This document shows positions 21,287-60,139 of a stretch of DNA of 64,000 nt, piece by piece; within the stretch, counting starts at the first letter, position 1; the number at the start of each line of letters is the position of its first letter. The notes beneath the pieces are model-generated. The model was not told the DNA's origin. It saw only the letters and a list, made by a program, of their open reading frames with translations, and did not search any database. Source of the stretch: Cyanidioschyzon merolae (Eukaryota); the NCBI GenBank assembly GCA_000091205.1, contig AP006492.2; one strand, given 5' to 3'. A program made the translations under genes and the position numbers.

Positions 21287-22570
21287 ATAATCCCTTGGCA
21301 CACGGACTCGAACTCCAAATACCCTCGACAGAAGGTATAGCAGCAGGCTGCCGGGTACGTATATGGGCCAAAGGGCCCGCCATGCGCACCTCTTTGAGTC
21401 GGATTTTCATGCAGACCCCTACGCACCTCAAGAACACTTGGACGAAATTGACGCAGATTGGGCTGAAGCGCCTATTAGACGAACATACGCTCCCCAATCG
21501 TTCCCCAGGAATGTACAAGGCTCCCGCCGCCTCAAGCGAACGGTCCAAACAACAATATGGGAACGTAGACACGGAACCAGTCGCGCCAGTAACGCCGGCT
21601 TGATCCTATACCGGAGCTACAACCTAGCATACACATGCAAGTACTGGTGGGAGGCGCTGGAATTCCCGGGACTTGCTCGAGGTACCCAGTGGCTCGCCAA
21701 AATCCGCGTTGGTGGCTTCTGGCTAGCGGCACCGGCTCTAAGCCGTATAGGGACACTGGAATCGCACTGGGAGTCACACTGTCCCTGCTATCGAGACGAT
21801 AACCCCGAGACGCTGACATATTTAGGCTTACAGTGCCCGCGCTGGAAGCAGGAGCGCAGCGAGCTCCTTGAAGGACAGCAGCAGCTGGGCATCACCATGA
21901 TATCCGAGGGCCGGACACTCACTTTGAGAGCAGCACTGGCAACTGATGGTCCGCTAACAGATCCTCAGCGCTCATTAGTGGCGAACAAACTCACATGCTA
22001 CCTTCCAAGCGGAAGGTCCAGCGGATCGGATGCGCACACGGGCCCAGTGCTCTCTGCGCCTACCTTCTGTATGGGTGTCAAACACAAACCCGCATTGCCA
22101 ACCGACGACAACGCATTCCATGCATGATCACGAAAGAGAGAGGCGGCTCCCACGATATATCCTAACAGTCAAGTTTCTCCAGCGTGTCGAGCAGCGAAGA
22201 CAAGCCTGCATCCGCAGACTGTCCGAGCACACACTGACGACGAGACCCGATTCTACGTCGGGTGAAGCGCACCTTGAGCCGACGCCCTCTGGGGTATAGA
22301 AAAGCCGTTCTGTCTCCATGATGCATCTGTACCAAAGGTAAAGACGCTATTGCGGACAATTAGGACAGGTTCTGGGCACACGATAGGACGTATGAGATGA
22401 CCAGAATATCCGAGATGAAGGATAGGTAATTTGACGTGGAGGTACGGGGGTTGATGGATACCCCACCGCGCACTGTAAAAAAATAACGCAAAAAGTAAGA
22501 AAAGAAAAATGCGCACAATCGGAGAACGCTGGCCCAAGTAAACGCGTTGTCCGTGAAAAAGGACTCATCG
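21287..22570 (+). mobile_element. Non-LTR retrotransposon (LINE) 3' fragment: C-terminal RT/zf-RVT region plus 3' UTR
   Basis: About 93% aa identity to the 3' part of the longer minus-strand LINE at 31400-35100 (ORF 21363..22127 versus 31844..32614). Starts abruptly at the copy-B left end. Its 3' UTR extends further than in the inverted copy; the exact 3' end (before 22700) was not resolved. Confidence 0.6.
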
Positions 22571-22755: not shown

Positions 22756-24189
22756 ATGATAGCGTTCGTTATTAATTCTGCAACGAAGGCCGCAGTTAGC
22801 CCATTAAAAGGACAAATTTGCCGTGGTCTTCCGAAAAACCCGAGCTTTGCGGCGTCTACCTGGCTAGGGCAGGCTGCGCTCTCGACGCGGCCGCGAAGTT
22901 CGCAAGGGCGTGGGCGCTCCGGTGTTCGCGAAAGCGCAGCTACGCGCGCACGCGCTCCTGTTTGTGTTCAAACAAGTGACGTTGCTATGCGGGTCCGTTC
23001 TATTCGTGATTTGCAGGACGCTGAAATCCGCGGAAAAAGAGTGTTTGTTCGTTCTGATTTGAACGTGCCCCTTGATGGAAAGCGAATCACAGACGACACG
23101 CGGATTCGGGCGTCCGTCCCGACGATCAAGTACCTCGCAGACAAAGGAGCAAAGGTGATCGTCGTTTCGCACCTCGGGCGACCCAAGGGCGGCTTTGAGG
23201 ACAAATATTCCTTGGCGCCAGTGGCGGAACGTCTCTCGGAACTCTTGGGAAAGAAGGTTCGCATGGCAAAGGATTGTATCGGGGACGCAGTGGCGACCGA
23301 AGTAGCGGCTATGTCCCCTGGAGATGTTGTTCTTCTGGAGAACGTCCGTTTTTACCCTGAGGAAGAAAAGAACGACCCCGATTTTGCGCGCAAGCTAGCG
23401 GCGAATGCGGACCTCTACGTGAATGATGCGTTCGGAACGGCGCACCGGGCGCACGCGTCCACAGAGGGCGTTACCGCTTTTCTCAAACCCGCAGTGGCGG
23501 GATTCCTCCTCGAAAAAGAGCTGGATTATTTGTCGAACGCAATTGAGAGCCCGAAGCGTCCATTTGCCGCTATCGTTGGAGGCTCCAAGGTCAGCACGAA
23601 AATCGCTGTTTTGGAGAAACTTCTTCAAAAATGCGATACAATCATCATCGGAGGAGGCATGGTATTTACGTTTCTCCGCGCGCGCGGTCTGAAGACTGGT
23701 AGCTCGCTTGTTGAGGAAGACAAAATTGAGTTGGCACGAGTCATCGAGGAAGAAGCGCGCAAGCGGGGAATCGAGCTCCTCCTACCCCTCGATGTTGTCG
23801 TCGCCGATAAGTTCGCCAATGATGCGAATACAAAGGTCGTACCAGTGGAGGAGATTCCGGACGGATGGATGGGTCTTGATAACGGGCCAGAGACGACAAG
23901 AATGATCCAGGAGAAGCTTCGCACGATGAAGACTGTTCTTTGGAACGGGCCCCTGGGCGTTTTCGAGATGCCGAACTTTGCCAAGGGCACCTTTGCCATT
24001 GCGGAGACTCTCGCGGAGATCACTCAGAACGGCTGCATCACGATTGTGGGAGGTGGCGATTCTGTTGCCGCTATGGAGCAATCAGGTAAGGCGGACAAGG
24101 TATCGCATATCTCAACCGGTGGTGGCGCTGCGTTGGAGTTAATCGAGGGGCGGGTATTGCCAGGTGTAGCGGCGCTCCAGAGGGCGTGA
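22756..24189 (+). CDS. PGK: Phosphoglycerate kinase, plastid/cyanobacterial type, with N-terminal targeting-like presequence
   Basis: Full-length PGK. '[35 protein letters not shown]' and '[39 protein letters not shown]' follow the short-loop chloroplast/cyanobacterial form ('[37 protein letters not shown]'), not the longer cytosolic insert. About 78 aa Ser/Ala/Arg-rich presequence from the ATG at 22756. TGA stop at 24187. Confidence 0.9.
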
Positions 24190-28849: not shown

Positions 28850-31400
28850 TCCGCGGCACCCCACGCAACGCGCCAACAACGCCGTTCTGAACTCGAACGA
28901 CGTCGAACGTGTACTGTATTGGCGACCAGTGCTCTAGACAAGAAGTCTCCAACTGATGTGCAGAGACCTCTCAGTTTTCTTGGACCGGCCACCTACTACG
29001 GCTTCCAACCTTTTCTCATATAATTCCACTTTGAGCGGTTGTCCCTTAAAATTCTCTCTTGTCAGCTGTGGAGGTTTTTTCTCCATCACCGCGCATCTCC
29101 TGATATTGATGGCGGTGTTAAAATCTCGGTTCACAAACTCCATACGTTTCTCGCCATTGTTGGTACTCACCAATGCAAGCAATCCTCGAACTTTCGCCAT
29201 CCTTTCCATCTGCTCCTCCGTCAGCGGTCCGTATTTTTTTATCCTCAGGGCTCCTCATGCACATTCCTACCTCCACTCTCTGAAGTAGACACCCCAGCTC
29301 ATGGTGTGTATACGACGTTCGAAACTCACCTACAGGTATTGTTACAAAGCGCCTTGCGCACTCCTTATACGCACTCGTCGTTGGAGCTGGCGTAGTTCCT
29401 TTTTGGGTCTTCCAGCGCCCTGCTCCGTATGCTACTACGAGCCTCTGACTTTTTTTATCCTCCTTCAAGGCGCTCATCTGATTGAAAACGTTCGCAAATG
29501 CCCGCTGCCTCTCTCCGTATAGACTCATACGCAGACGAGCCCACCGGGGCATGGTATACTCCTTCCACAGTGCGTCCCAATGGGCAACGCGAACTTCCAT
29601 GAATTTCCGAAAAGCAGTAAAGTCCGCTCCTCAGCTCGTGATCTCCCTCATAGCTTCGAGGTGATCCTTCATTCCTGCATTCCACCTCTCATTTGTCTTC
29701 CTTGCATTCATTATATCCGATTCTAGACAGTATCTCGCTCTCGAGAACCTCAAAAGACGCATGTCTTTCTGAGGTAAGTTGCCGTCAGTACCATCATCCG
29801 CACGCTTGGGAGCAGCGATGGTTATGATATTCGTATTCCCAGGGACCGCGCCGACGACAAAGTCGTTATCTTGCACTTTCGGGGTCACAGGACCCGCCTC
29901 CTTCTTTTCTGCATTCTTCGCCGCGCCAACGAAAGTCGTTATCCTGCACCTCCTGTGCCGCAGGATCCGCCTCCTTCTCACATTCATGGTTCGTCACGGG
30001 CGCAGCCGAGGGCGGGACTGGACGATCTCTCTTCAACCGCCGATAGTGTATACACAAGGCTACTCCATCGGTATCGATCATCCCAGTGAGTACCTTTTGT
30101 TTGCTCACCCTCAGACGTTTGAAATCGAAGATATTCTTCCAGAACGTCTCCCGGTTTTCACCGTAGAATTCCTCCCTGCTAACATCGAACTCCGGACTGA
30201 TCTCCTTCATGATGCCATGAAGGACTGCGGAGTCGATACTCACAAAATGTGACTTGATGGTGCACATCGGAACGATGTAGAAGCGCTTACCCATCAGGAA
30301 AGCCTTCCGTCTGTCCCAGTCTTCAGTTTTCCCCACTCAGCTTCATTTCTGCCTTGCGTTCGAGTTCTCGGTCCAGAAACACGAAATAACATAGGATGAG
30401 GCGATAGTATCTTCCCTTATCTTTTTCAACGCTGATATCTTGTCTGTTGGATTCGGCAGCCCCATGACTGCACGGTGCTCTTGTATATCCGCACGGATGA
30501 CGGAGACCTTATTCGTGCTCTGGTTTGACGCCTTCTTGTCGACAAATTCGACGTCATCTTCACGCTTGCGATCGTTCGTGATGCCATTGATAATCGCTGA
30601 TATTCCTTTGGGACAGATGCCCGGGTAGAGTGCAAACAAGGCGCGTATCATGTAACGTTCGAGGTTCACTGTCAAATTGTTCTTCAGGTTCGCGGTATAC
30701 TTTATCGCCCCGTATATGTAAATACCCCGGTCACCGCTTTATCGATTACTCTCGAGGCGGAATTCCGCCAAGTTTTCGTGGAGGGCATGCACTGGCTCAT
30801 TTTCCCCCGCGCTTACTCTGTACCAAGCATCAGCTGACGAATAAACGTCGCATCGAAAACGCCGTCCGGGAACCTCGACCGTTTCCATGTGCGTCACTTC
30901 GCGATACATCTCCCTCGCCAAATGCATCAGTCCTGACGAGGCCTTGACAATACTCTTGGAGTACGAGTCGATACGTTTTTCGATAGCGTTTCGCTAGTGT
31001 TCCCTGTAAGGATCCTTGATATGTTTAAGAAGAAAGGTTTTCACCAGCATCTCGTTGTACGGTTGTAGTTCTTGCGGCCATCGACTTGGAATATCCCCTT
31101 TTTGCGTTTTCTTCTTATGCTGTTCTTCTGAACTCGGTACTGTTTTTTTTCTTTTCTGGCAGCCAGCGACACTGGGGCGTCAGGATCGCCGACTTGCTTT
31201 TTCATAACTTCCTTTTTAAGTTTTTATAAATCAGCCCTCCGTGAACGCTTCTGTTATATACTGAGAAAAACAATCGAATATTTTCACTTGAGGGTTGAAA
31301 CACAATCGAACTGAAAACTATACATGCCTATGAAGTTAACAAAAATACAACTTTGACATTAGAGCTACATGCTAGATATCAAGATCACGTTTCCCTTTAA
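28850..31400 (-). mobile_element. Fanzor/TnpB-like element, copy C
   Basis: Near-identical to copy B over about 29067-31217. Its left end is about 55 nt shorter than in A and B and abuts the 3' UTR of the minus-strand LINE at about 31400. The right end lies about 30 bp upstream of the exosome-subunit ATG. Confidence 0.6.
28934..31048 (-). pseudogene. Fanzor1/TnpB-like nuclease ORF, copy C (frame breaks; RuvC-I Asp replaced)
   Basis: Same fragment set as copy B. RuvC-I reads '[15 protein letters not shown]' (Asp to Val). RuvC-III 'NRDFNTAINI' is retained. C-terminal extension '...RSKKTERSLHISWRLLV*'. Confidence 0.6.
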
Positions 31401-34400
31401 CGGCGGCATGTTTTTCATTAACAACGCGTTTACTTGGGCCAGCGTTCTCCGATTGTGCGCATTTTTCTTTTCTTACTTTTTGCGTTATTTTTTTACAGTG
31501 CGCGGTGGGGTATCCATCAACCCCCGTACCTCCACGTCACATTACCTATACTTCATCTCGGATATTCTGGTCATCTCATACGTCCTATCGTGTGCCCAGA
31601 ACCTGTCCTAATTGTCCGCAATAGCGTCTTTACCTTTGGTACAGATGCATCATGGAGACAGAACGGCTTTTCTATACCACAAAGGGCGTCGGCTCAAGGT
31701 GCGCTTCACCCGACGTAGAATCGGGTCTCGTTGTCAGTGTGTGCTCGGACAGTCTGCGGATGCAGGCTTGTCTTCGCTGCTCGACACGCTGGAGAAACTT
31801 GACTGTTAGGATATATCGTGGGAGCCGCCTCTCTCTTTCGAGATCATGCATGGAATGCGTTGTCGTCGGTTGGCAATGCGGGTTTGTGTTTGACACCCAT
31901 ACAGAAGGTAGGCGCAGAGAGCACTGGGCCCGTGTGCGCATCCGATCCGCTGGACCTTCCGCCTAGAAGGTAGCACGTGAGTTTGTTCGCCACTAATGAG
32001 CGCTGAGGCTCCGTTAGCGGACCATCAGTTGCCAGTGCTGCTCTCAAAGTGAGTGTCCGGCCCTCGGCTATCACGGTGATGCTCAGCTGCTGCTGTCCTG
32101 CAAGGAGCTCGCTGCGCTCCTGCTTCGAGCGCGGGCACTGTAAGCCTAAATATGTCAGCGTCTCCGGGTTATCGTTTCCGCAGCAGGAACAGTGTGACTC
32201 CCAGTGCGATTCCAGTGTCCCTATACGGCTTAGAGCCCGTGCTGGTAGCCAGAAGCCACCAACGCGGATTTTCGCGAGCCACTGGGTACCTCGAGCAAGC
32301 CCCGGAAATTCCAGCACCTCCCACCAGTACTTGCATGTGTATGCTAGGTTGTAGTTCCGGTATAGAGTCAAGCCGGCGTTACTGGCGCGACTGGTTCCGT
32401 GTCTACGTTCCCATATTGTTGTTTGGACCGTTCGCTTGAGGCGGCGGGAGCCTTGTACATTCCTGGGGATCGATTGGGGAGCGTGTTGTCTCCTAAGAGG
32501 CGCTTCAGCCCAATCTGCGTCGATTTCATCCAAGTGTTCTTGCGGTGCGTTCGGGTCTGCATGAAAATCCGACTCAAAGAGGTGCGCGTGGCGGGCCCTT
32601 TGGCCCGTATACATGCCCGGCAGCCTGCTGCTATCGCTTCTATTGAGAGTATTTGGAGTTCAAGTCCGAGTGCCAGCGCGGTGGTTGCCCTGCTCTGCAT
32701 TGAGCATCCAACAACAACGAGTCTCATTGCCCCGTTGGCGGCTGTCTGCGGACGCGAGGCATTTGTGTGCTTCATGCCGCACCACTCAGCACCCCAGGTC
32801 GCAGGCTGGGTGATACACATCCTTAGTGCCCTCGTACGAATTGCTATGCGGATAGAGGGGTCGGATGGGAATGAGCGTGCGATCGCTGTACCTCTATGCA
32901 TCTTGGCGATCATCTCGTCGACGTGTGCCTTTTCGTCGAGCGTCGGCGTGAGACCGACCCCCAGGTAGCGATATTTTTCCACGATCGGGATTTCCGGATT
33001 CTGCAACCGCCACGAGCGATTGCGAATGCTCTGCGAGTCTCCATGGATGACCATGACGCCGCACTTCGATGCTCCTATGCTCATCTCCCAGCGATCGGCC
33101 CAGTCGCTGACTTGTTGCATGCTAGCCGCAAGCGTTTCAGGGGCGGGTGCCAACAGCACGACATCGTCCGCAACTAGACGGCCTGCGAGGCGGTTCCTAT
33201 GTGAGGGCTCCTCATCGGGCATCTCCACAGTCTATCCACGGCACCTCAAGCCCGTATTGTCTGCAGTTGTTCAGCAGATCGTTGATGAAGATGTTGAAAA
33301 GGAGCGGGGATGCGCGCTCGCCCTGCCGCAGTCCACGGCGGATTCTTCTGGAAGGGGTTCTTGAGCTGTCGCCCAGTCGGATGCGCATCCATGAGTCTGC
33401 ATAGAGCGCACGGAAGAACGCTAAGCACTTTCCGGAGACTCCGGCGCGTTCCATCTTCAGAAATGGAGCCTCGTGCGGGACCGTGTCAAAGGCCTTTTGA
33501 AAGTCAATGAAGCATACGTAAGTTGGTTGTTGGCCGCTAATGGAGCGACGTTGCACCACTTCAGTTAGGGTCAGGACATGGCTCATGCACTCCTCGTGGC
33601 TCCGGAATCCAGCCTGTTCTGGGGCGAAGAACTTGCGTTCCTGGAGGCCTCTCTGGATCCGGTTCGTGGGAATGGCGCAAAGTAGCTTCATGATTGACGG
33701 GATGAGGCGCATAGAGCGGTAGTTGTTCATGTCTGTGTGGGAGTCCTTTTTGAGGATCGGTACGACCTCAGCAGTCCTCCATACATCCGGGATGTACGCC
33801 TCTTCGAACATGCGTTGGATGAGCTCCACAAGGCGTTTGCCTAAGCTTGTGTCAGATTCATCTGGTATTGATGGTGTCCCTGTTGTCCCGTCTTTTGGGG
33901 TCACCAGTTTCATCCACTCCGCAGGGATACCGTCGATGCCAGGTGTTTTGCGGTTGCATGACCTTAAGAGGGTCCGGACAGATTCAGGCCAGAAGATTGG
34001 GTCGTTCCATTCCGGTACCGATTCGAGGCGCGGTAGTTCTGCGGCATACTGGTGCCAATAGATTGGGTCTTGGCAGTGCCCAGTTGCTTCTTCATGCAGC
34101 TCTGTGCCGTGGTCCGTCCAGGCCTCATTCACTGAGGCACGCTCCGTCCTCAGCGCTTCCTCATAAACGATTGGTGTGAGCCCCAGGCACTTTTTTGGTG
34201 GGTCCAGTCTCGGTCGAATGTAGCGCCAGGTCTCATCTTCGTTGGTGCTCTCTAGCATAGATTTCGCCAGGGAGGCGATTTCGCGGTTTCGATCCTCTCG
34301 TTTGTCTTCTCTGGAAAGTTTCTTCTTTCTTTTGATAGCTTCTTCATGTTGCGCCTGTAGCGCCGTTAGGACTGCCTTCGCTTCCTTGTCTCCGGCGTTG

Positions 34401-35100
34401 ACGCGTATGGCGGTGTGGTTGACGATCTGATAGAGTCGGTGGCGCTCGTCAATCCGGGTATTGGTACGTCGTTTCAGGCACTGAGGTTTGCAACTGTTGC
34501 GTTCTGGTGCAAGCAGTCCCAGCTCTCCGGCAATCTTCTGATTCCCATCTACAAACTCGCGTGCCAATTGGTCTAAAGATTTGTATGCACGGCTTTTCGG
34601 ATCTTCAGCGCTGTGAGTAGGTGACTTGGTTTGGCGACGGCTTTCTTGAGTTCCTGCTGGGGTGCTCTTTCGGGGACGACTTGTGATGGGCTCGCTGGAG
34701 CCCCCGCCTGTGGGCTCGTTCGGGAGTTCTTCTTTCTATTCTTCTGTTTTTCTCTTGCTGGTTTGCTTCTTCATCGGGCTCTTTCCTGAGCTACATTCTC
34801 TGGTTACTTTGCATCTAGGTGGATCATGAGGTTTCTGTGTCTCCTTCTCCGTGTCTGGTTGGGTCTCTTTTCCTTTTGTACAGTCCTCGACTTGTATCAG
34901 TTCTTCATTACTGTACTGGTAATTCGATATCTCGTAGTTCAATACCGAGGCGATCCCACAAATATTCCATGATGCGAAACCTATCGAGTCGTAGCGCATA
35001 AGGGAATAGGAGTAACGCTGCGGTACTCGAGAGATACGTTGTCGATTGAGATGCACCCTCCACGGAGTGTGTGAGAGCACATGCCACCAGCGCCTCCTAC
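31400..35100 (-). mobile_element. Non-LTR retrotransposon (LINE), longer copy, lacking most of the endonuclease domain
   Basis: Minus-strand ORFs 33212..34567 and 32368..33228 carry reverse-transcriptase motifs. ORF 31844..32614 carries a zf-RVT-like 'HWESHCSCCGNDNPETLTYLGLQCP'. Near 34970 there is an APE-like remnant ('FASWNICGIAS') with no following endonuclease domain. Its 3' UTR (about 31400-31843) is the inverted repeat of 22128-22570. Confidence 0.6.
31844..34567 (-). pseudogene. LINE ORF2-like reverse transcriptase (frameshifted into three pieces)
   Basis: RT blocks: 'YRSMRLIPSIMKLL', 'PEQAGFRSHEECMSHVL', 'CFIDFQKAFDTVPHE', 'GLRQGERASPLLFNIFINDL' and a YxDD-like region; C-terminal zf-RVT. 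Reading-frame breaks at 33212-33228 and 32368-32614. Confidence 0.55.
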
Positions 35101-36379
35101 ATTCCAGTCGTTCACTGAGTGTCTGCCGCAGCGCTAGCGTAGAATCAGATGTACGCTAGTCAAGGTCGATTCAAATGCGACCTTTATATTGCCCGACGCT
35201 TTAACCTCCCCTCAACAATTGGGAACAGTCTGCAAACCACCCTTTCAGCGGCTACGTATCCGCTCCCCAAACACATAGGCGGGCAAGCCGCTTATTCCAG
35301 CTTCGACCGCAAACATACTGCCAGCCGTCTTCCAAAGTATCCGCCGAAATTGTTCCCAAAGTTGAGGTAGGTACCCAAGGTAGGAGATAAAACTGAGCCC
35401 GAGTCCGAGGATCGATCCAAGATTTGCGCCCGAACCTGCAGCGTTGATTCGGGAGGGGCGGATGACTAATCAGGATTTTCGTCAACATTTTCTGGTGCTA
35501 CTGCCGCCGCCCCTCCGTTCGTTGCGCGGTCAAGGTCCCTGGCGTGGGCTTCCTTCGCCGTCGCCCAAGCACCCCGCGTTAACCCACTTTCAGAGCTTCT
35601 CCGGAAAAACTAGACCTTTAAGGCGGGCGTGGTGTGTGGGTCTTTAAGATAGTTGTTCTTTAATAAATAGTTTGCGACTAGTTTGTTTTGTTGTTTTTTT
35701 TTTGTTTTTTTCCGCACGACGATTTCTCTTTTTTGGTTACGAAGAACGTTCCATACACCACCGCCGTGCGATCATGGCGGCGTTTCATTGGTTGCGGATT
35801 GAACCGCCTCCGCGTCGTTGCACCATTCGATTCGAAACGTAGGGCATACGCGACGCCTGTTCCCGTCGGATGGGGACGTGTCGCCGGGCCGGTGCGGGTA
35901 CCGCCCCGGGGATGTCGGCACCCAGACCCCGCGAACGGGGACGCAGGAGCAGTTCCCTCGAGCGGCCCCGCGAAATCAACAGACGACCATCGATGCGTAA
36001 TACGTGGCGTAAATCAGGTATGCAACCGATCGAAAGGATACCAAGTTACGACGGCGACGGTTTATTCACTGACGCCTTCTCCAGACCTTGGCGTTTTCCT
36101 GCTTCAATCCAGTTTAGACAGGGCGTTAGAGTTTTCACGGAGGGAACCTCGTCTATTCGGACCAGTCTGCTCTCTTTTTGGAGGGACAGGTCAAGATCCA
36201 GCGTTTTCCTGGCGTGTTGTGTTTGGGAGTGCGGAGCGCTTTCTGCTTGTGCAGTGGACGAAAGCGGCTTTTGGTTGTCTCGTCACTTTGGACGCTACTG
36301 GAGAATAGAAGTCACTCGCTGTCTTCTACAGCTAGGAAACGCACTTATGTGATTTTATATTTCACTTAATAGGCAAATA

Positions 36380-39300
36380 ATGCGACCGAATATGCAACGA
36401 TTATGGAATATTTTTGCTCTCGGGCTTGTGCTGTTCCTTCTTGCGAGACTTTCGCAGACGCTTTTAATAACAACCGTGAGGGACGGTGAAGCTGAGGCTA
36501 TAAAACGTTCCGCTGCTCGCCATGAGCTATGGGATGATTGTTCTCCGTTCAGGCGCATAGAGGGTTCTTGGGCGCGGAGATGGCGAAGTGTCGTTTTCCA
36601 TAGGGAAACTTGCGCTCGCTTCCGTGTGACGGACAGAGAACTGGTGAGCGTCGACGGGGAATCTGACAGCTGCGGCATTTCAGGAGTATGCGTTAGCCCA
36701 TCCACCGAACTCGAACGATGGTCTCAACTACCGGGGAAGAGAGTAGCGGGACACGGGGAAGTGTTGCGTTTCTCGAACGTTCCAACGCACTGGAAAAGAA
36801 TGGACTGTGTCCACGGCTCGCTGAAAGGCAACAGCATTCCCGTTAACGTAGAAAACGGGAAATATTGTATTTTACCCGATGGACAGGGGTTCAACGTGTT
36901 ATCGCCTGCCGCGGAAATCGAGCGGAGTGAAAGTCCTGCGGAAACAGCCGCGGACGAACTGGGATCTCATGAAGGTACTTATTCATGCCAGCCTGCCAGG
37001 CAGGTTGTGGAACCATGCTCTCCCGAAAGAAGGAGACTGGTAAAGGAAGCTTCGGGAGTAAGCAAGACTCTAGGCAGCTGCTTTTCGACCTGGCGGTCCT
37101 GGCGGTCCTGGTGGTCCTGGCAGTTCAGGTACCCCTGGTAGTTCGGATGGTGCCGGGGGTCCCGGAGGCGGTGGCCCCGGAGGCGGTGGCCCCGGAGGCG
37201 GTGGCCCTGGTGGCGGTGGCCCTGGTGGCGGTGGCCCTGGTGGCGGTGGCCCTGGTGGCGGTGGCCCTGGTGGCGGAGGTCCCGCTTCAGCTTCCGCTTC
37301 AGCTTCCGCTTCAGCTTCCGCTTCAGCAAGTGCATCGTACTCGCTGAGCTACTACGACTCGAGGAGCGCCTCAGCCTCAGCCTCAGCCTCAGCCTCAGCC
37401 TCAGCCTCCGCGTCGGCGTCGGCTAGCGCATCGTACTCGCTGAGCTACTATGACTCGAAGAGCGCTTCAGCCTCGGCGTCAGAGTCAGCCTCAGGCTCAG
37501 CCTCGGCAAGTGCCTCTTACTCGCTGAGCTACTATGACTCGAAGAGCGCATCAGTGTCGGCATCAGCCTCGGCGTCAGCCTCTGCGTCATCTTCGGCAAG
37601 TGCGTCGTACTCGCTGAGCTTTTATGATTCAAAGAGTGCTTCAGCCTCAGCATCATCTTCGGCAAGTGCGTCGTACTCGCTGAGCTACTATGACTCGAAG
37701 AGCGCTTCAGCCTCGGCGTCAGCCTCAGCATCATCTTCAGCGAGTGCGTCGTACTCGCTGAGCTACTATGACTCAAAGAGCGCTTCGGCCTCAGCATCAT
37801 ATTCGGCAAGTGCCTCGTATTCGCTGAGCTACTATGACTCGAAGAGCGCTTCGGCCTCAGCATCATCTTCGGCGTCGTCATCAGCCTCGGCGTCCGCAAG
37901 TGCATCCTACTCGCTGAGCTACTATGACTCGAAGAGCGCATCAGTGTCGGCATCAGCCTCCGCGTCTGCTTCAGCATCATATTCGGCAAGTGCCTTGTAC
38001 TCGCTGAGCTTTTATGATTCGAAGAGCGCTTCGGCGTCTGCGTCAGCTTCGGCGTCGTCATCAGCCTCGGCGTCCGCAAGTGCATCGTACTCGCTGAGCT
38101 ACTATGACTCGAAGAGCGCATCAGTGTCGGCGTCAGCCTCCGCGTCTGCTTCAGCATCATATTCGGCAAGTGCCTCGTACTCGCTGAGCTTTTATGATTC
38201 GAAGAGCGCTTCGGCGTCTGCGTCAGCTTCGGCAAGTGCGTCGTACTCGCTGAGCTACTATGACTCGAAGAGCGCTTCGGCCTCAGCATCATCTTCGGCA
38301 AGTGCGTCGTACTCGCTGAGCTACTATGACTCGAAGAGCGCTTCAGCCTCGGCGTCAGCCTCAGCATCATCTTCAGCGAGTGCGTCATACTCGCTGAGCT
38401 ACTATGACTCAAAGAGCGCTTCAGCCTCGGCGTCAGCCTCAGCATCATCTTCGGCAAGTGCGTCGTACTCGCTGAGCTACTATGACTCGAAGAGCGCTTC
38501 AGTGTCGGCGTCTGCTTCGGCGTCGTCATCAGCCTCGGCGTCCGCAAGTGCATCCTACTCGCTGAGCTACTATGACTCGAAGAGCGCATCAGTGTCGGCG
38601 TCAGCCTCCGCGTCTGCTTCAGCATCATCTTCGGCAAGTGCCTCGTACTCGCTGAGCTTTTATGATTCGAAGAGCGCTTCAGTGTCGGCGTCTGCTTCGG
38701 CGTCGTCGTCAGCCTCGGCGTCAGCAAGTGCATCGTATTCGCTGAGCTACTATGACTCTAAGAGTGCTTCAGCCTCGGCGTCAGCCTCAGCATCGTCTTC
38801 AGCAAGTGCGTCGTACTCGCTGAGCTACTATGACTCGAAGAGCGCTTCAGCCTCGGCGTCAGCCTCTGCATCATATTCGGCAAGTGCCTCTTACTCGCTG
38901 AGCTACTATGACTCGAAGAGCGCTTCAGGCTCGGCGTCAGCCTCAGCATCATCTTCGGCGAGTGCGTCGTACTCGCTGAGCTACTATGACTCGAAGAGCG
39001 CTTCAGGCTCGGCGTCAGCCTCAGCATCATCTTCAGCGAGTGCGTCGTACTCGCTGAGCTACTATGACTCAAAGAGCGCTTCGGCGTCAGCATCATCTTC
39101 GGCAAGTGCGTCGTATTCGCTGAGCTACTATGACTCGAAGAGCGCTTCGGCGTCTGCGTCAGCTTCGGCGTCGTCATCAGCCTCGGCGTCCGCAAGTGCA
39201 TCGTACTCGCTGAGCTACTATGACTCAAAGAGCGCATCAGTGTCGGCGTCAGCCTCCGCGTCTGCTTCAGCATCATATTCGGCAAGTGCCTCGTACTCGC

Positions 39301-42300
39301 TGAGCTTTTATGATTCGAAGAGCGCTTCGGCGTCTGCGTCAGCTTCGGCGAGTGCGTCGTACTCGCTGAGCTACTATGACTCGAAGAGCTCTTCAGCCTC
39401 GGCGTCATCTTCGGCGAGTGCGTCGTACTCGCTGAGCTACTATGACTCGAAGAGCGCTTCAGCCTCGGCGTCAGCCTCAGCATCATCTTCAGCGAGTGCG
39501 TCATACTCGCTGAGCTACTATGACTCAAAGAGCGCTTCGGCCTCAGCATCATATTCGGCAAGTGCCTCGTATTCGCTGAGCTACTATGACTCGAAGAGCG
39601 CTTCGGCCTCGGCGTCAGCCTCTGCATCATCTTCAGCGAGTGCGTCGTACTCGCTGAGCTACTATGACTCAAAGAGCGCTTCGGCCTCAGCATCATATTC
39701 GGCAAGTGCCTCGTATTCGCTGAGCTACTATGACTCGAAGAGCGCTTCAGTGTCGGCGTCTGCTTCGGCGTCGTCGTCAGCCTCGGCGTCAGCAAGTGCA
39801 TCGTACTCGCTGAGCTACTATGACTCGAAGAGCGCATCAGTGTCGGCGTCAGCCTCCGCGTCTGCTTCAGCATCATCTTCGGCAAGTGCCTCGTACTCGC
39901 TGAGCTTTTATGATTCGAAGAGCGCTTCAGTGTCGGCGTCCGCTTCGGCGTCGTCGTCAGCCTCGGCGTCAGCTAGTGCATCGTATTCGCTGAGCTACTA
40001 TGACTCGAAGAGCGCTTCAGCCTCGGCGTCAGCCTCCGCGTCTGTTTCAGCATCATCTTCAGCAAGTGCCTCTTACTCGCTGAGCTTTTATGATTCGAAG
40101 AGCGCTTCAGTGTCGGCGTCATCTTCAGCAAGTGCCTCGTACTCGCTGAGCTACTATGACTCGAAGAGCGCTTCGGCGTCAGCATCATCTTCGGCAAGTG
40201 CGTCGTATTCGCTGAGCTACTATGACTCGGTGAGCGCTTCGGCCTCTGCATCATATTCGGCAAGTGCCTCTTACTCGCTGAGCTACTATGACTCGAAGAG
40301 CGCGTCAGCCTCGGCGTCAGCATCATCTTCAGCCTCAGCAAGTGCATCGTACTCGCTAAGCTACTATGATTCGAAGAGTGCTTCAGCCTCAGCATCATCT
40401 TCGGCAAGTGCATCGTACTCGCTGAGCTACTATGTCTCGAAGAGCGCATCAGTGTCGGCGTCAGCCTCCGCGTCTGCTTCAGCCTCGGCGTCAGCAAGTG
40501 CGTCGTACTCGCTGAGCTTTTATGATTCGAAGAGCGCTTCAGTGTCGGCGTCAGCTTCGGCAAGTGCGTCGTATTCGCTGAGCTACTATGACTCGAAGAG
40601 CGCTTCGGCCTCAGCATCATCTTCGGCGTCGTCATCAGCCTCGGCGTCCGCAAGTGCATCGTACTCGCTGAGCTACTATGACTCGAAGAGCGCATCAGTG
40701 TCGGCGTCAGCCTCCGCGTCTGCTTCAGCATCATATTCGGCAAGTGCCTTGTACTCGCTGAGCTTTTATGATTCGAAGAGCGCTTCGGCGTCTGCGTCAG
40801 CTTCGGCGTCGTCATCAGCCTCGGCGTCCGCAAGTGCATCGTACTCGCTGAGCTACTATGACTCGAAGAGCGCATCAGTGTCGGCGTCAGCCTCCGCGTC
40901 TGCTTCAGCATCATCTTCAGCAAGTGCCTCGTACTCGCTGAGCTTTTATGATTCGAAGAGCGCTTCGGCGTCTGCGTCAGCTTCGGCGTCGTCATCATCC
41001 TCGGCGTCCGCAAGTGCATCGTACTCGCTGAGCTACTATGACTCGAAGAGCGCATCAGTGTCGGCATCAGCCTCCGCGTCTGCTTCAGCCTCGGCGTCAG
41101 CAAGTGCCTCTTACTCGCTGAGCTTTTATGATTCGAAGAGCGCTTCAGTGTCGGCGTCATCTTCAGCAAGTGCGTCGTACTCGCTGAGCTACTATGACTC
41201 GAAGAGCGCTTCGGCTTCAGCATCATCTTCGGCAAGTGCGTCGTACTCGCTGAGCTACTATGACTCGAAGAGCGCGTCAGCCTCTGCGTCTGCCTCGGTG
41301 GCAGCATCATCTTCAGCCTCAGCAAGTGCCTCGTATTCGCTGAGCTACTATGACTCGAAGAGCGCTTCGGCCTCTGCGTCTGCCTCGGTGACAGCGTCTG
41401 CCTCAGGCTCAGCGTCGGCAAGTGCGTCGTATTCGCTGAGCTACTATGACTCGAAGAGCGCATCGGCGTCAGCATCATCTTCGGCAAGTGCGTCGTACTC
41501 GCTGAGCTACTATGACTCGCAGAGCGCGTCAGCCTCTGCGTCTGCCTCGGTGGCAGCATCATCTTCAGCCTCAGCAAGTGCCTCGTATTCGCTGAGCTAC
41601 TATGACTCGAAGAGCGCTTCGGCCTCTGCGTCTGCCTCGGTGTCAGCGTCTGCCTCAGGCTCAGCGTCGGCAAGTGCGTCGTATTCGCTGAGCTACTATG
41701 ACTCGAAGAGCGCATCGGCGTCAGCATCATCTTCGGCAAGTGCGTCGTACTCGCTGAGCTACTATGACTCGAAGAGCGCTTCGGCCTCAGCATCATCTTC
41801 AGCAAGTGCGTCGTACTCGCTGAGCTACTATGACTCGAAGAGCGCTTCGGCTTCAGCTTCATCTTCAGCAAGTGCGTCGTACTCGCTGAGCTACTATGAC
41901 TCGAAGAGCGCGTCAGCCTCTGCGTCTGCCTCGGTGGCAGCATCATCTTCAGCCTCAGCAAGTGCCTCGTATTCGCTGAGCTACTATGACTCGAAGAGCG
42001 CTTCGGCCTCTGCGTCTGCCTCGGTGTCAGCGTCTGCCTCAGGCTCAGCGTCGGCAAGTGCGTCGTATTCGCTGAGCTACTATGACTCGAAGAGCGCATC
42101 GGCGTCAGCATCATCTTCGGCAAGTGCGTCGTATTCGCTGAGCTACTATGACTCGCAGAGCGCGTCAGCCTCTGCGTCTGCCTCGGTGGCAGCATCATCT
42201 TCAGCCTCAGCAAGTGCCTCGTATTCGCTGAGCTACTATGACTCGAAGAGCGCTTCGGCCTCTGCGTCTGCCTCGGTGTCAGCGTCTGCCTCAGGCTCAG

Positions 42301-43082
42301 CGTCGGCAAGTGCGTCGTACTCGCTGAGCTACTATGACTCGAAGAGCGCTTCGGCCTCTTCGTCTGCCTCGGTCACATCTAGCCAATATGCAAGTGCGTC
42401 TGTGAGCGCGTCTGTTTCTTTCTCCAGTTCTTTGAGTGCATCTGCTTCTTCTAGTGTGTCTGTTTCGAGTACTACAACTGGCAATCCTGTACGTTTGATA
42501 CTGAAAGAGGATTTTTTTACGGGTGTTGCCTCTGAGTCTGCGTTGGCTGACGCGCTTCGCCATGCCCTGGAGGTACTCTTCGGTATTACTCCACTGAGTT
42601 TTATTGTGAATAGTATGCGTGAGATCACTAAGTCAAGTATTCTTGAGTCGAACTTCAGGTTGGACGCAGACGAGTTTGTGAGTTGCATTAGCAGTGCGCA
42701 ATCTCTGATACTTTATAATACGACGAGCGTCTGGGATGCCGATGGTTCAACGGCTTCGCAGATCGCATCGGGACTTCGCGAAGCGTTGAAAAATGGCACA
42801 CTCAGCGCCGAACTATCCAAGTTTTACGGCTCTCCAGTCTGTGTAGCGCCGAATGGAACAGTAACTATAGCCGGATTGGTCACTTCGAGCTCGAGTCCGC
42901 TCCCTGTCTGGGTGATCGTTATCATAGTGGTGCTTGGAACTCTATTACTGTCTAGTTGCTGTGCGCTTCTTGTATTCGCGGTGCGTCGTCGGAAACGACG
43001 ACATGCCGCGGAGAGCGAAGCGCAAGAGGATCAGACAGACGCTGAAACGGCCGACACCGGAATAGATGACTTCGGTTTGTAG
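36380..43082 (+). CDS. Giant secreted/transmembrane Ser/Ala-rich mucin-like protein (~2200 aa; one frame change at ~37040-37075, possibly a 34-nt intron)
   Basis: ATG at 36380 with a signal peptide ('[27 protein letters not shown]') and a ~220-aa N-terminal domain. The frame changes at about 37040; a candidate GT...AG intron at 37040-37073 would join the frames. Then follow (GGGGP)n, about 65 tandem repeats of roughly '[24 protein letters not shown]', a ~170-aa non-repetitive juxtamembrane domain, a TM ('[29 protein letters not shown]') and a basic/acidic cytoplasmic tail ending at 43082. Confidence 0.7.
37083..37290 (+). repeat. (GGC GGT GGC CCY GGW)n, encoding a Gly-Gly-Gly-Gly-Pro repeat
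   Basis: Direct 15-nt repeats read from the sequence ('ggaggcggtggcccc' / 'ggtggcggtggccct'), inside the mucin-like gene. Confidence 0.8.
37316..42370 (+). repeat. About 5 kb coding minisatellite: ~65 tandem units of 66-96 nt encoding SA-rich / '[10 protein letters not shown]' repeats
   Basis: The unit 'tactcgctgagctactatgactcgaagagcgcttc(a/g)gc...' recurs throughout. Unit length varies by the number of GCN/TCN (Ala/Ser) codons. Sub-variants ('SASVSASA', '[11 protein letters not shown]', 'SGSASAS') occur in blocks, suggesting higher-order repeat structure. Confidence 0.9.
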
Positions 43083-44853
43083 TATTTATTTACCTATTCG
43101 TAAATTGTACATTGACTGACGTAATCTCAACGTACTCTGCCTGCGAGCCAGAGCTCAATATAACATAAGAATTATCTCCAGTTGAGAGCATTCCCTTCAG
43201 AATCCAAGATTCTTTGTGCGCGCGGGTTTGGACGACGTCGATTGCCACGGTCACAGAGTACTTGACCCGTGTCCGACAACAATGAGACTTTGAATTGCTC
43301 GTTCTGTTGTCGCTTTTCGATCCGTTTTCCAATTTCTACCTATACGGTTTACGCAACGCATGCACCACCATATTTGATTCCAGATTCGTTGGTAGAAAGA
43401 GGTTCCTCCGGGGTCGGTTTGGTGCGTCACTTTCGAATCTTTCCCACCGAAATCCGTTGAGTCTGCAGAATCAAGATTATCGCGGATCTTCGGACGTCGG
43501 TCTATAAAGCTAACCTCACAATTATCCAATTCCTCAACACAAGGGTACATAATTCTGGTCTCCTTACATGTTGTCTGCAAATCAGACGCATTCTTCAAGT
43601 TTTTGATTTTTATGCAGAAAGAACTCCTTATTGCAAAAATCCGTGCAGGTTGGTTGACAAAGAATAGGACTTCCATGTCGTATATTAGCGCAATATTCAC
43701 CAGCTCATTCCGAAAGCTTGTTTAACCTTTTATGATACAAAACAGATCTCGTTCGAAGAACGATACCTTTTCGCCGAGGGGCAACATGCGAAACGGCATT
43801 CCACAGAAGCATCATTATTCTCGCGGGATTGGCTTCCAGAGGCTCTCGTCTTTTCATTCTGCTCGGCGAAGAATACTGGAATCGGACTCGAGTACTCACA
43901 GCGACGGCCACGTGTGGGGCGTTTATTGCCGATTTGCACGAAAGGAATATGGGCAGATTGAAATTCCTGTACATTTTCTCAAACTTGAATTGCCTTCCGG
44001 TACTTGTTTGATCACAGAAAAGACCCCGATCGAAGGCTTCTATCCGAAGAAAATAAAAAAACAGAGGAAAGTCCTGCTAGATAACCAAAGCTCTTCTTCG
44101 TGTGTCAACCGCGATTGAGCACGTCATGCGGGGCCTTGAAGAACAGATTCATGGAAGTGAATGCACGTTTCTATCCCTGAAGTCGTCCTCGTTACGAGCT
44201 AGTGCTCGATGGTGATAGCGCTGTCGCTGAAATTGCCGTGCGGGTTGGTGCTCGTTTCGTAGGCTTCGTATATTTGTGGATCGCCGAGTTCCGGCGAAAC
44301 GTGAAGAATAAAGATGACCGAAGCATAAATCGTAAATATTATATATACTTCTTGTTCATCAAACAAGCCACAGCACGCTCATGTGCACCAGCTACGCCTT
44401 GGGATGTATCCCGTCGGAGTACCAAAGATACTCTGCAGCATCTCGGAAAAAGGTGCACTCCGCTCCCACCAAGGGGCGCCATTCCCTGACAGAACGCCTT
44501 CAAGCACAGTTTCATTGGGTGGGCGCCCTAGCTTGCGATACGTTGCGCTCAGCGCTACTCTGGGACAGAGATAACGGACAGGTACCCTGGATTTTACTTG
44601 CTCCGACTCCATATGCAGGAGCCTATGGAAATCGAAAGACTCGCGTACTCAAAAACGACAATGAAGGGGAAGAAAGCGAAGCGGTTGCAGAACGAGCCTC
44701 AAAGCGTGGTATTGATAGAGGTGAAAAGCGGATCGAAGTTTAGCATGCTCGCTAGAACCAGATGAACTTGTTTTCTAGCATAGATGGGGCCATGCTAGAA
44801 TGATTAGAATTCGGACGTCAAGTCACCGTCCGTTTGAGTGAGCCGCTCGGCAG

Positions 44854-45987
44854 ATGTATGATACCCCCCGGGATCAACACATGCGAGCCACGGGCGCTCT
44901 GCACGTGACGCTGCGACGCTTGGGTTGCATGGCCCTCGGGCGTTCTCCTCTCGGCCTCCTGGGCTGGTGCGATGTGTGCGCGCTGGACGAGCCTGTCCAT
45001 TCGAAACGCGCCTCGAGCTCACGAGTGTCGACCCAATGCCCAGCCTATCGCCACGCTCACCGCTTGAAGCGCGTTCTGACGCTTCCGGGCGCGTTCGTGC
45101 ACCAGCTGCTGGAGACAGCGGCAGCCGCGGTGACGACACAAAACCCGGCTGCGGAGCCTGCGCTAACGCAGACACGCAGCACCCTCGAGCCGTTCTGGCA
45201 CCTGCTGAAACGCAACCTGCGCGCCGCAGCATGGAATGACGAGCAGCTCCTGGCGTTTATCGACGACGTGCTGGTGATCTACACATGCCAAGCAGCGATG
45301 GCACGTCATTGGCGCACGCAGCTGGCAGAGGTCATCGGCATCGCAGCGGATCGCGTGTCCACTGATGCGGCGATTGCGTGCTGGTGCCGATGCGTGCGCG
45401 ACGACGTGCCGCGTTGCCGGCTCTGTGGGCACGATCACTTGACACGATGCTGGCTGCCGGCGCTCGTTGCCTTGATTTGGGTGATTCCACCACGAGGGCG
45501 CTCGCGTTGGCTTCAAAAGTGTCTATGTGCGCGTCTCCTGGAGAGCTGGGTATCGCGTCGTACTGAATTGCAGGTTGAGGCACAGGAGTCTGCAGTTGCC
45601 CGCATCGATGATGGTGCGTCCGAGGCGGATGCAGGGCACGCGTCGGTTATGCTGCTTGCACGCGTCGCTGGCGCGCTGTGCCTGCCACGCTATGAGGCCG
45701 GCCGCACGTCGGGACGCGCTTCCGATGCGAGTGATCTAGAGTGGATGGTGGATGCGATGCACTTGCTCCTGCTGGATTGGAATGTCGTTCCCGACATTGC
45801 CGCGGCGATACATTCGATGCGTCGGCATGTCTTGCAACAGCTTCGCACGGTGCTTGCTGCTTGGACGCAGGTTGCGCGTACGGTGCCGGAGCCGCGGGGT
45901 TACCGGCTGCGTACGCAGCTGCACCTGCTTCGTCGGCAGCTCTGCGATGAGCCCGTGGATGTGTTTGGGAGCGGTACGGTTCCGTGA
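44854..45987 (+). CDS. Hypothetical protein
   Basis: 377-aa ORF with reasonable composition and no recognisable motif; start uncertain. Confidence 0.3.
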   Translation: MYDTPRDQHMRATGALHVTLRRLGCMALGRSPLGLLGWCDVCALDEPVHSKRASSSRVSTQCPAYRHAHRLKRVLTLPGAFVHQLLETAAAAVTTQNPAAEPALTQTRSTLEPFWHLLKRNLRAAAWNDEQLLAFIDDVLVIYTCQAAMARHWRTQLAEVIGIAADRVSTDAAIACWCRCVRDDVPRCRLCGHDHLTRCWLPALVALIWVIPPRGRSRWLQKCLCARLLESWVSRRTELQVEAQESAVARIDDGASEADAGHASVMLLARVAGALCLPRYEAGRTSGRASDASDLEWMVDAMHLLLLDWNVVPDIAAAIHSMRRHVLQQLRTVLAAWTQVARTVPEPRGYRLRTQLHLLRRQLCDEPVDVFGSGTVP

Positions 45988-58441: not shown

Positions 58442-60139
58442 TCAGTGCCATCCCTTGTTGTCGCCTACGCTGGACGTGTACTTGATCCAGCGCATGGCCT
58501 CATGGTCGTCGGCGGTGAGCGCGATGTGTCCATAGACCCAGGCGCGGAAGTACCAGAAGCACCAGAAGACAACGATCCAGACGATACCGGCGAGCGGCAG
58601 CTGCAGCACCGACGGTAGCGCCGGCAGATCGAGTACCGCGTGCGCAAAAAGCAGCTCCGCGAACAACAGCGACGGCAGGTAGTGGTAGATAAACGTACTT
58701 CGCTGGATCGGCATGTACGGGAGAATGCCGAGCGCATAGCCAAGCAGAAGGAATGTTGCCAGCCGCAGGTAGCGCTCCCATGCGTCCGTGCTCGTTCCAC
58801 GCTTTTTCCGCTGGCGAATCAGGCGCAGCAAGAACGGCATCGCCGCCACTGTACCAAGCACCGCTGCCAAGCACATCCAGAACAGCAGCGGATTCCCGAT
58901 CAGATAGATCTGCATGGCGTGATGCGGGCGCAGCGGTCGCCCGTCAGCATCCAACGTACCCTCCTGCCAGCGATTCCAGTAGAGGAGGCCACGGCCTACG
59001 TAGGGCCATGTGTGCCAGCGCGCTTGCCACTGGTGCTCATCGAGGATTCGCGCGTTCGCCAGCAGCATCTCCTTGTTGAGCTGCCAGACGAGCTTGAGGA
59101 AAGGCGGCTTTCGGGCCTGCGGGTCGTAGCCGTCGCGACCAATGAGGGTCCGCTGGAACTCGGCGCTCATAAAGTCACCGCCTGGTCCATTATAGATCAG
59201 AATCCGAAAGTGCGGGTACCAGAGCGCCACGTACAAGAGCAGGGCTGTTGCGGCGACGATCGCGCAGGTGCTCCACTCGAGCGGCTCGGCGGCGAGCGCA
59301 GCGCCGGCAACCGACTCGAGGCCGAAGAGGCCGGGCACCACGAGCGTGGTCCACTTCACTGAGAGCGCTGCACCGCTCGCGAGGCCGGCGCGCACAGCAG
59401 CCCAGCGTCGAGCGCGGCTCGCTGGAGGCGTGCGCCACAGCCGCACGAACGCATCGATGCATAGCGCAGCGTAGAAGATGAGCTGCGAGTCCGTGAGGAT
59501 ATGGCGCGCCTCGATCAGGTTCAGCATGTCGAAGAGCAGAAACACGCCCACACTAGTGGCTGCGATCCGCGACATACCCATCCCGCGGGCGATGCGGAAG
59601 CCTAGCGGAGGCAGGAGCGCCCCGAAGACGCCAGCGCACGCGCGCATCGCATAGTACCGGCTGTCTGGTGGGTAGACCTTGTCGACGTACCAGTCGCGAT
59701 TCGGGACGTCACCAGCGAGTTTCGCGACTGCGGCCAGCGTGAGCTTCGCCAGAGGCGGGTGGATATCAAAGAAGTAGGTGCGGTTGAGGTAGTGGTGTGC
59801 GAACGACGCAAAGTGAACCTCATCGAAGACGCATTCGGGTGGCCAGCGGATCCGGTAGAGGCGCGTCCACAGTCCAAGCAGCACGAGCGCACCCGTGAGC
59901 CAGGCGTCCGGGTTCGCGCGTACGTGCGCAGTCGAGCGCAGCACTAGTCGTTCGAGTGGTGATGCCTGTTGTTTCTGCGGGTCAGCGCCCGGGTGCTCAT
60001 GCTGTGGTGTGTCCTCTTTGGTGCGGCCCTGATGCATGACGTCCAAGTCTGCCGCCTGCACACGCTCAGTTGACGGCGACGAGGCGGGTAGCGAAGCGGC
60101 GGTGGCGTCCGCGGCTCTTCGCTTGACAGCAGGCGCCAT
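58442..60139 (-). CDS. Protein O-mannosyltransferase-like (GT39 / PMT family) without MIR domains
   Basis: ATG at 60139. N-terminal loop motif 'VFDEVHFASFAHHYLNRTYFFDIHPPLAKL' is the PMT hallmark ('VFDEVHFG.F...Y....YFFDVHPPLGKL'). Multi-TM body of ~565 aa, shorter than fungal/animal PMTs because no MIR repeat region is present. Confidence 0.6.
   Translation of the reverse strand: MAPAVKRRAADATAASLPASSPSTERVQAADLDVMHQGRTKEDTPQHEHPGADPQKQQASPLERLVLRSTAHVRANPDAWLTGALVLLGLWTRLYRIRWPPECVFDEVHFASFAHHYLNRTYFFDIHPPLAKLTLAAVAKLAGDVPNRDWYVDKVYPPDSRYYAMRACAGVFGALLPPLGFRIARGMGMSRIAATSVGVFLLFDMLNLIEARHILTDSQLIFYAALCIDAFVRLWRTPPASRARRWAAVRAGLASGAALSVKWTTLVVPGLFGLESVAGAALAAEPLEWSTCAIVAATALLLYVALWYPHFRILIYNGPGGDFMSAEFQRTLIGRDGYDPQARKPPFLKLVWQLNKEMLLANARILDEHQWQARWHTWPYVGRGLLYWNRWQEGTLDADGRPLRPHHAMQIYLIGNPLLFWMCLAAVLGTVAAMPFLLRLIRQRKKRGTSTDAWERYLRLATFLLLGYALGILPYMPIQRSTFIYHYLPSLLFAELLFAHAVLDLPALPSVLQLPLAGIVWIVVFWCFWYFRAWVYGHIALTADDHEAMRWIKYTSSVGDNKGWH

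Follow-up and report, generated by a model that had tools for sequence, protein, structure and literature searches.

A probably frame-broken gene for a predicted giant repeat-stalk membrane protein on chromosome 10 of Cyanidioschyzon merolae

The window analysed here (64,000 nucleotides of Cyanidioschyzon merolae DNA, contig AP006492.2) carries two overlapping open reading frames (ORFs) on the + strand between positions 36380 and 43082. The locus was read as one gene of a small C. merolae-like family, which when intact probably encodes a giant type I membrane protein acting as a surface brush, and which is frame-broken in the reference of strain 10D. All positions given are those of the window. 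A first-pass annotation, made from the letters alone, had described the locus as a single mucin-like gene with a coding minisatellite and a possible 34-nt intron.

The first ORF (frame 2) runs from ATG 36380 to TAG 37139-37141 and encodes 253 aa. The start codon and signal peptide occupy 36380-36457 (end approximate), with a hydrophobic window at aa 8-33 that is the same in all homologues, and SignalP-5 scored the protein as 'SP(Sec/SPI)' (PMC13353863, Data Set S8). An N-terminal head of ~195 aa follows at 36458-37039. It contains 8 Cys, an even number, and belongs to no known family by Pfam, NCBIfam and PDB searches. The next 34 nt (37040-37073), which had been proposed as the intron, were identified by homologue alignment as the remaining 5' third of a linker of 114 nt (38 aa), and a deletion junction was placed at 37073-37074.

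The second ORF (frame 0, 37074-43082) opens just past a TAG at 37071-37073 and comprises 2,002 codons plus the stop TAG at 43080-43082, with no ATG before its C-domain. From 37074 to the first-frame stop at 37139-37141 both frames are open. The frame-0 product begins AAAFRP(GGP)3 and continues with (GGGGP)8, 63 repeat units, a Ser/Val-rich spacer, a C-domain, a transmembrane (TM) segment and a tail. The first of these stretches is a 9-nt CCTGGCGGT (Gly-Gly-Pro) repeat in 3 copies (37089-37121; 2 copies in the homologous metagenome loci L005 and L007). GGGGP is encoded by a 15-nt repeat in 8 copies (37148-37276; 10 copies in L007) and is probably a flexible hinge. The coding minisatellite, 63 units of (AS)n + YSLS[Y/F]YDSKS, covers 37284-42347 and is followed by a degenerate Ser/Val/Thr-rich spacer (42348-42482). 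The juxtamembrane C-domain (42483-42899) is non-repetitive and 139 aa long, with 2 Cys, 3 N-X-T sequons and no known family. The TM segment has 28 residues (42900-42983, hydropathy maximum 2.81) and is followed by RRRKRRH, as the positive-inside rule requires. The cytoplasmic tail of 32 aa (42984-43082 with the stop TAG) is basic, then acidic, and ends IDDFGL. By hydropathy and sequence the locus therefore has an N-terminal signal peptide, one C-terminal TM segment and a basic cytoplasmic side, which are the features of a type I single-pass membrane protein. A TAAA 19 nt past the stop (43101-43104) is a candidate poly(A) signal; the poly(A) motif of C. merolae is UAAA (PMC8831791). The domain order of the first-pass annotation (signal peptide, N-domain, GGGGP, repeats, juxtamembrane domain, TM, charged tail) was recovered in full, as was its observation that the N-domain and the repeats lie in different frames (2 for the head and 0 for the remainder).

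In the C. merolae 10D annotation, ORF 36380-37141 is CMJ309C (BAM80399), a 253-aa 'hypothetical protein' whose last 21 residues are the Gly/Pro segment read out of frame. This head is the only annotated part of 36380-43082, and the frame-0 ORF has no protein model in the reference. CMJ311C (BAM80400, 44854-45987) has the next protein accession, and a 2026 gene table gives the order CMJ308C ('retroelement, alive'), CMJ309C, CMJ311C (PMC13353863, Data Set S8). The C-domain had no match among NCBI proteins; a single metagenome fragment was found. The 6-kb frame was taken to be unannotated because CMJ309C directly precedes CMJ311C and the C-domain has no NCBI protein match.

In the indexed search the only 10D paralogue of the head was CMN009C on chromosome 14 (268 aa, 90% identical), whose low gene number suggests a location near a chromosome end. 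The CMN009C protein reads through the equivalent of the 34 nt as VMKASGATKTLG, then LKRLKKGDPHITAGLVSNNRRV, and then enters Ser/Ala repeats. Five loci were obtained when metagenome contigs were scanned with the head. In L005 and L007, which come from different projects, the head is followed by an in-frame linker that includes VKRLKLGDLHITGGLVSNNRRVYGLT and is identical in both. L006 is of the CMN009C type and is likewise one continuous ORF. Translations of the 34 nt, VMKASGATKTLG being one of two forms, are in frame in L005, L006, L007 and P0032. L007 has the same architecture as the window locus in a single uninterrupted ORF of 1,115 aa, and its downstream 3.7 kb matches window 42282-45969 at 97.6%. 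Exact-protein look-ups with CMN009C, CMJ309C and the ATG-started C-terminal ORF returned no contigs. The continuous ORFs of the homologues argue that the ancestral state was one uninterrupted ORF. The single gene of the first-pass annotation is thus supported by L007, which continues into the downstream flank of the window and has the same domain order in one ORF, and on this comparison 36380-43082 is judged to be, or ancestrally to have been, one gene.

Relative to L005 and L007, the window lacks 80 nt (GCGTGAAAC...GGACTGACA) between CTCTAG and GCAGCTGC, with a 2-nt microhomology (GC) at the junction. The corresponding segment of the L006 linker is ~85% similar. Together with one extra 9-nt GGP unit, the loss gives a net length change of -71 nt in the window. 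The two frames differ because 80 = 3n+2.

Removal of 37040-37073 does join the frames exactly, as had been noted, but the segment did not hold up as an intron. A spliceosomal intron here would have GT...AG ends, a length of 3n+1 and, once removed, a fusion of the head to the repeat frame in a 2,222-aa protein. L005, L006, L007 and CMN009C all read the homologous 34 nt as in-frame codons of a continuous ORF, and the 80-nt deletion accounts fully for the frame difference. Frame-restoring, stop-free GT..AG pairs numbered 467 over the whole scanned range and ten at ≤150 nt, including 37040-37073. The frame match is not beyond chance, because the nine other short pairs achieve it as well. GTAAAG is the most donor-like start among the ten. 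According to the main text of an RNA-seq study that set the shortest allowed intron at 20 nt, 39 introns are known in C. merolae; their donor GUAAGU is strongly conserved, their branch site ACUAACC is virtually invariant and their acceptor is AG; splicing is inefficient, and there are a few non-canonical cases, one with a GA donor (bioRxiv 10.64898/2026.05.17.725761). That main text does not name CMJ309C. Segment 37040-37073 shares only the GT...AG termini with these Cyanidiales introns. It starts GUAAAG, and neither GTAAGT nor ACTAAC nor CTAAC occurs in 36380-37400. An AG acceptor is present (CTCTAG, 37068-37073), which is trivial given ten such pairs at ≤150 nt. A query across the junction for spliced or unspliced fragments gave no matches; CMJ309C itself was also not returned. 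An intron at this position was considered very improbable, and on the homologue alignment the 34-nt segment is the leftover 5' part of a 38-codon linker. In a genome poor in introns, a frame-restoring GT..AG pair is weak evidence of splicing, and here it was the comparison with a paralogue that settled the matter.

A programmed +1 frameshift or transcriptional slippage within 37074-37138 would also give the full-length protein, and this 65-nt overlap is open in both frames and built of short CCTGG(C/T)GGT repeats. No known +1 shift motif was recognised in it, its RNA folding was no better than that of shuffled controls (z = -0.29), and the homologues need no recoding. Recoding was regarded as scarcely credible.

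We lean towards a real, recent deletion of the 80 nt in 10D rather than an artefact of cloning, polymerase chain reaction (PCR) or assembly. 10D is a haploid clone that has been cultured since the 1990s and maintained asexually for decades (PMC13353863). A loss of 80 nt of unique sequence with a 2-nt microhomology is atypical of sequencing error, and unlike base-calling or repeat-collapse errors. The 10D annotation of CMN009C is likewise truncated when compared with L006, and the window-type head carries extra radical substitutions within a cluster of nonsynonymous changes. The somewhat less probable alternative is that the actual 10D genome does contain the 80 nt and that they were lost from the reference through Sanger sequencing, bacterial artificial chromosome cloning or PCR, in which case the gene would be intact and the full-length protein made in 10D. 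The downstream 6-kb frame is perfectly intact, and CMJ309C is transcribed in 10D at ~80-135 transcripts per million (TPM). Difficult regions of the reference were completed via PCR and subcloning. In its earlier versions >20 kb was misassembled or wrong, and one gap on chromosome 10 required special sequencing chemistry. The junction lies 75 nt upstream of the 129-nt GC-rich 15-mer array, where, for example, a clone deletion or a mis-join by Gly/Pro repeats might arise. Should the deletion in 10D be real instead, growth in culture would not depend on the full-length protein, nor would mating absolutely require it, because 10D mates with MS1 Ha3 (PMC13353863).

The head type of the window is shared with L008 and L009, which differ from it by one base in the head coding sequence. 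Against all other copies this type shows 9 nonsynonymous changes and 1 synonymous change at residues 41-81 (36500-36622), C73F and C81F among them. The cluster could reflect relaxed constraint, diversifying selection or a conversion tract. The ratio of nonsynonymous to synonymous substitution rates (dN/dS) was ~0.4-1.7 for the head, on few substitutions, and 0.45 for the C-domain against L007. By these estimates constraint is weak on the head and moderate on the C-domain.

The repeat array translates to 1,696 aa (Ser 48.6%, Ala 26.4%, Tyr 11%, Thr 0.1%, Pro none). The first-pass annotation was right in calling it a coding minisatellite; its estimate of ~65 units was replaced by a count of 63. 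Unit sizes are 22 aa (21 units), 26 (10), 28 (2), 30 (25) and 32 (5), that is 66, 78, 84, 90 or 96 nt, every one a multiple of 3. All 63 units end in YSLS[Y/F]YDSKS or a one-residue variant. Each contains one Lys, one Asp and 3-4 Tyr, and small residues strictly alternate. In the 14 conserved codons of the 63 copies (+ frame 0), the minor-allele fraction at codon positions 1, 2 and 3 was 0.003, 0.018 and 0.12. Variation concentrated at third positions argues that the array evolved as coding sequence in + frame 0. Minus-strand ORFs of 375-778 aa were judged to be composition and repeat artefacts; the variation among units fits + frame 0.

Self-comparison of the array was done by a direct offset scan. 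Segment 41157-41711 is duplicated at 41793-42347 (555 nt, 99.1%), 37802-38233 at 40556-40987 (432 nt, 98.8%, offset 2,754 nt), and a further 404 nt recur at an offset of 1,116 nt (98.3%). At the 3' end a higher-order unit of 252 nt (30+32+22 aa) repeats at 97-98%, and this unit with the 555-nt duplication makes up the youngest block (41157-42347). In-frame units thus stand head to tail, and multi-unit blocks are more alike than neighbouring units, as in coding minisatellites with higher-order repeats. The variants listed by the first-pass annotation (ASVS..., ...VAASSS..., ASGS..., YDSQS, YYVSKS) were found blockwise in the unit listing. Its suggestion of higher-order periodicity, for which it had asked for self-alignment and tandem-repeat analysis, was confirmed by the multi-unit duplicates and the 252-nt unit, and the 98-99% duplicates are of the kind that unequal exchange yields. 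The length and composition of the array would change by unequal exchange between such multi-unit blocks. The L007 copy (10001-13348) has ~27 units and 10 GGGGP, against 63 and 8 in the window. Either the copy number is truly polymorphic, or the array collapsed when short reads were assembled.

Searches of Pfam, NCBIfam and PDB sequences with the head, with the C-domain and with 309 aa of hinge plus repeats returned nothing above noise. They detected neither SEA nor VWD nor any other known domain; the C-domain gave only sub-threshold noise of TM type. Exhaustive HMMER searching matched head residues 92-119 (36653-36736) to the ~40-aa blade of bacterial FG-GAP/tectonin proteins (P0034 and others). 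These matches were rejected as homology: they span ~28 aa each, and their E-values are inflated by repeats in the target. On these searches the family is confined to C. merolae-like sequences, with no detectable homologues elsewhere.

Published expression values for CMJ309C were 0, 0 and 0 TPM in diploid MS1, 13.0, 12.5 and 4.6 in haploid MS1 Ha3, and 79.9, 77.3 and 135.6 in haploid 10D (PMC13353863, Data Set S8). The log fold changes (2n/n) were -8.2 (false discovery rate, FDR, 2e-24) and -11.5 (FDR 6e-96) (PMC13353863). Transcription of CMJ309C is haploid-phase-specific, in both mating types. 10D is a wall-less haploid, and the wall of the diploid is largely proteinaceous (PMC13353863). The gene identifiers were not mentioned in the main texts of the literature searched.

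From the above a product and a mechanism can be proposed. The family has two annotated copies in 10D, CMJ309C and CMN009C. With the array of the window the intact product would be ~2,260 aa long and would consist of a cleavable signal peptide, a Cys-containing head, the 38-aa linker, the Gly/Pro hinge, a ~1,700-aa stalk of 63 units, an N-glycosylatable juxtamembrane domain, a TM helix and a charged tail. As written, the locus would encode only the secreted head of 253 aa, and the other 6 kb would be untranslatable unless the reference is wrong. The Ser-rich stalk would be O-glycosylated in the secretory pathway and extended as a brush, which would hold the head far from the plasma membrane. 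Such a brush may give naked haploids an outer glycocalyx at pH ~1, a surface for cell-cell contact, or both. O-glycosylation is suggested by circumstantial evidence, namely the predicted secretory topology and a PMT gene at 58442-60139. This gene, for a PMT-family protein O-mannosyltransferase, and one for a GT92 glycosyltransferase (17489-18775) both lie on the minus strand of the window. Of the two only PMT is relevant, in that O-mannosylation machinery exists.

The stalk might instead be a fibrous, beta-sheet-prone or cross-linked (Tyr-Tyr, Lys-derived) matrix protein, like silk fibroins, sericin and extensins. The array is Pro-free and almost Thr-free, with strict alternation of small residues and 3-4 Tyr plus Lys and Asp per unit, and Cyanidiophyceae secrete lysyl oxidase and make RBOH, which generates reactive oxygen species (PMC13353863). 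Lysyl oxidase and RBOH (the latter for one of its two genes in C. merolae) are, however, expressed mainly during the diploid phase, in which CMJ309C stands at 0 TPM; haploids are wall-less; and the protein is membrane-anchored. A fibrous matrix was therefore considered unlikely.

Several observations weigh against the proposed frame-broken gene for a surface brush. The 2,002-codon downstream frame is free of stops, when ~6.5% of point mutations would make one (codon-count estimate). This points to a break of very recent date, to an artefact, or to translation that somehow continues. L008 and L009, which have the window-type head, both end at ~36940, before the junction. L007, a possible chimera, crosses ~2.4 kb of repeats in a short-read assembly. 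AlphaFold gave a pLDDT of 38 for the head and 40 for the C-domain, and the models were unusable. Pro is found only in the GGGGP hinge upstream of the array, which is not the Pro-rich (PTS) composition of mucins. The surface location and the function of the intact protein are predictions.

The window proteins are encoded on both strands by long intron-free ORFs (PGK, FTR1, PMT, an RNase PH domain, SURP, a MAGE domain, GT92 and a reverse transcriptase). Exact protein matches to C. merolae 10D, chromosome 10, were obtained for PGK (BAM80396), 12629-13990 (CMJ300C) and 15996-17387 (CMJ302C), as well as for CMJ309C and CMJ311C. Scans of the whole window for tRNAs and Rfam families found nothing. 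PGK (22756-24189) has an N-terminal extension of ~85 aa that resembles a red-algal plastid transit peptide, and the protein is identical on at least 13 metagenome and run-assembly contigs. The window contains a direct duplication (18758-21223 and 28935-31397, 2.47 kb, 96.6%) and an inverted one (21296-22560 and 31411-32675, 1.27 kb, 95.4%). Both flank PGK on either side and abut the retroelement, and the gene copies of L006 and L007 also have related sequence (83%) upstream. The reverse-transcriptase ORF (32368-34567, minus) is in two frames, 33212-34567 and 32368-33228, and adjoins CMJ309C in the published gene table. C. merolae has just 26 non-long-terminal-repeat elements altogether. L005 and L007 lack 581 bp (35678-36258) directly upstream of the start codon of the gene that the window, L006 and L008 have, an indel polymorphism of the promoter region between gene copies or strains. 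CMJ311C falls in a 51-member 90%-identity cluster, together with CMQ009C (998 aa, from a different chromosome) and numerous variants from metagenomes, and is possibly another multi-copy family associated with chromosome ends.

10D is prized for a '100% complete' and simply annotated genome, yet a ~6-kb open frame, among the longest of that genome, has no protein model in it. The opening 253 codons stand in the annotation as a hypothetical protein of their own, whose C-terminus is read out of frame, and the locus thus offers a correction to the annotation of a model genome. The sexual cycle of C. merolae was described only in 2026. Of the surface proteins made in the wall-less phase, the product is probably the largest, and the gene is a concrete candidate for naked-cell survival at pH 1 or for recognition between haploids.

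The kind of protein predicted here is a repeat-stalk surface glycoprotein encoded by a coding minisatellite, with glycosylation as a prediction. The term mucin-like, used in the first-pass annotation, applies only in a loose sense. Long Ser+Thr-rich tandem repeats of the mucin type are there (63 units, Ser 48.6%), but a Pro-rich composition is not: the array has no Pro and 0.1% Thr. Neither SEA, VWD nor a recognised juxtamembrane domain was detected by Pfam, NCBIfam and PDB sequence searches. The Ser-(Pro/Hyp)n motif of extensins and other hydroxyproline-rich proteins is missing as well, with no SPP(P) in the array. Transmembrane mucins of the MUC1 type and the fungal signalling mucins Msb2 and Hkr1 have a signal peptide, a long Ser-rich repeat ectodomain, a single TM segment and a short tail. 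The window gene shares with them the signal peptide, a very long Ser-rich repeat ectodomain encoded by a variable coding minisatellite, a small juxtamembrane domain, the single TM and the short cytoplasmic tail. Unlike them, it has no sequence or domain homology to the group (no SEA, VWD or HMH by Pfam), its repeats are Pro-free with 11% Tyr and 0.1% Thr, and its O-glycosylation is predicted.

Fungal adhesins and flocculins (FLO1, FLO11, ALS) contain intragenic repeats whose copy number shifts by recombination, and frameshift-inactivated copies occur in laboratory strains. Like these, the window gene would present a head on a Ser-rich repeat stalk and belongs to a small paralogous family in which the repeat number would shift by recombination between units; one copy (CMN009C) may lie at a chromosome end, and the copy in the laboratory strain 10D appears frame-broken. 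It differs in its TM-helix anchor, where adhesins have a glycosylphosphatidylinositol or wall anchor, and in that no PA14, Flo11 or Ig-like head was detected; adhesion is a conjecture here. Leishmania proteophosphoglycans carry very long Ser/Ala-rich arrays on a wall-less unicell in an acidic, hostile environment, and their phosphoglycosylation is trypanosomatid-specific. The likeness lies in the long Ser/Ala-rich surface arrays and the wall-less cell in acid, whereas the repeat motif is another one and there is no homology.

The sexual agglutinins of Chlamydomonas (SAG1, SAD1) are hydroxyproline-rich proteins with Ser-Pro repeats, each specific to one mating type. The predicted protein resembles them as a giant fibrous surface protein that has a globular head and whose expression is confined to the haploid phase, when cells are competent to mate; in contrast, its array has no hydroxyproline-type Ser-Pro repeats and CMJ309C is expressed in both mating types. 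An equivalent role in this red alga, as a sexual agglutinin or a molecule for recognition at the gamete surface, with a haploid-only, fast-evolving head on a length-variable stalk, was considered improbable for the intact protein. If it has that role, allelic and paralogous head variants, together with on/off states set by frame breaking, would influence which haploids contact and fuse. The gene resembles transmembrane mucins, signalling mucins and adhesins in its architecture and algal sexual agglutinins in its expression, and by sequence is a member of none of these groups.

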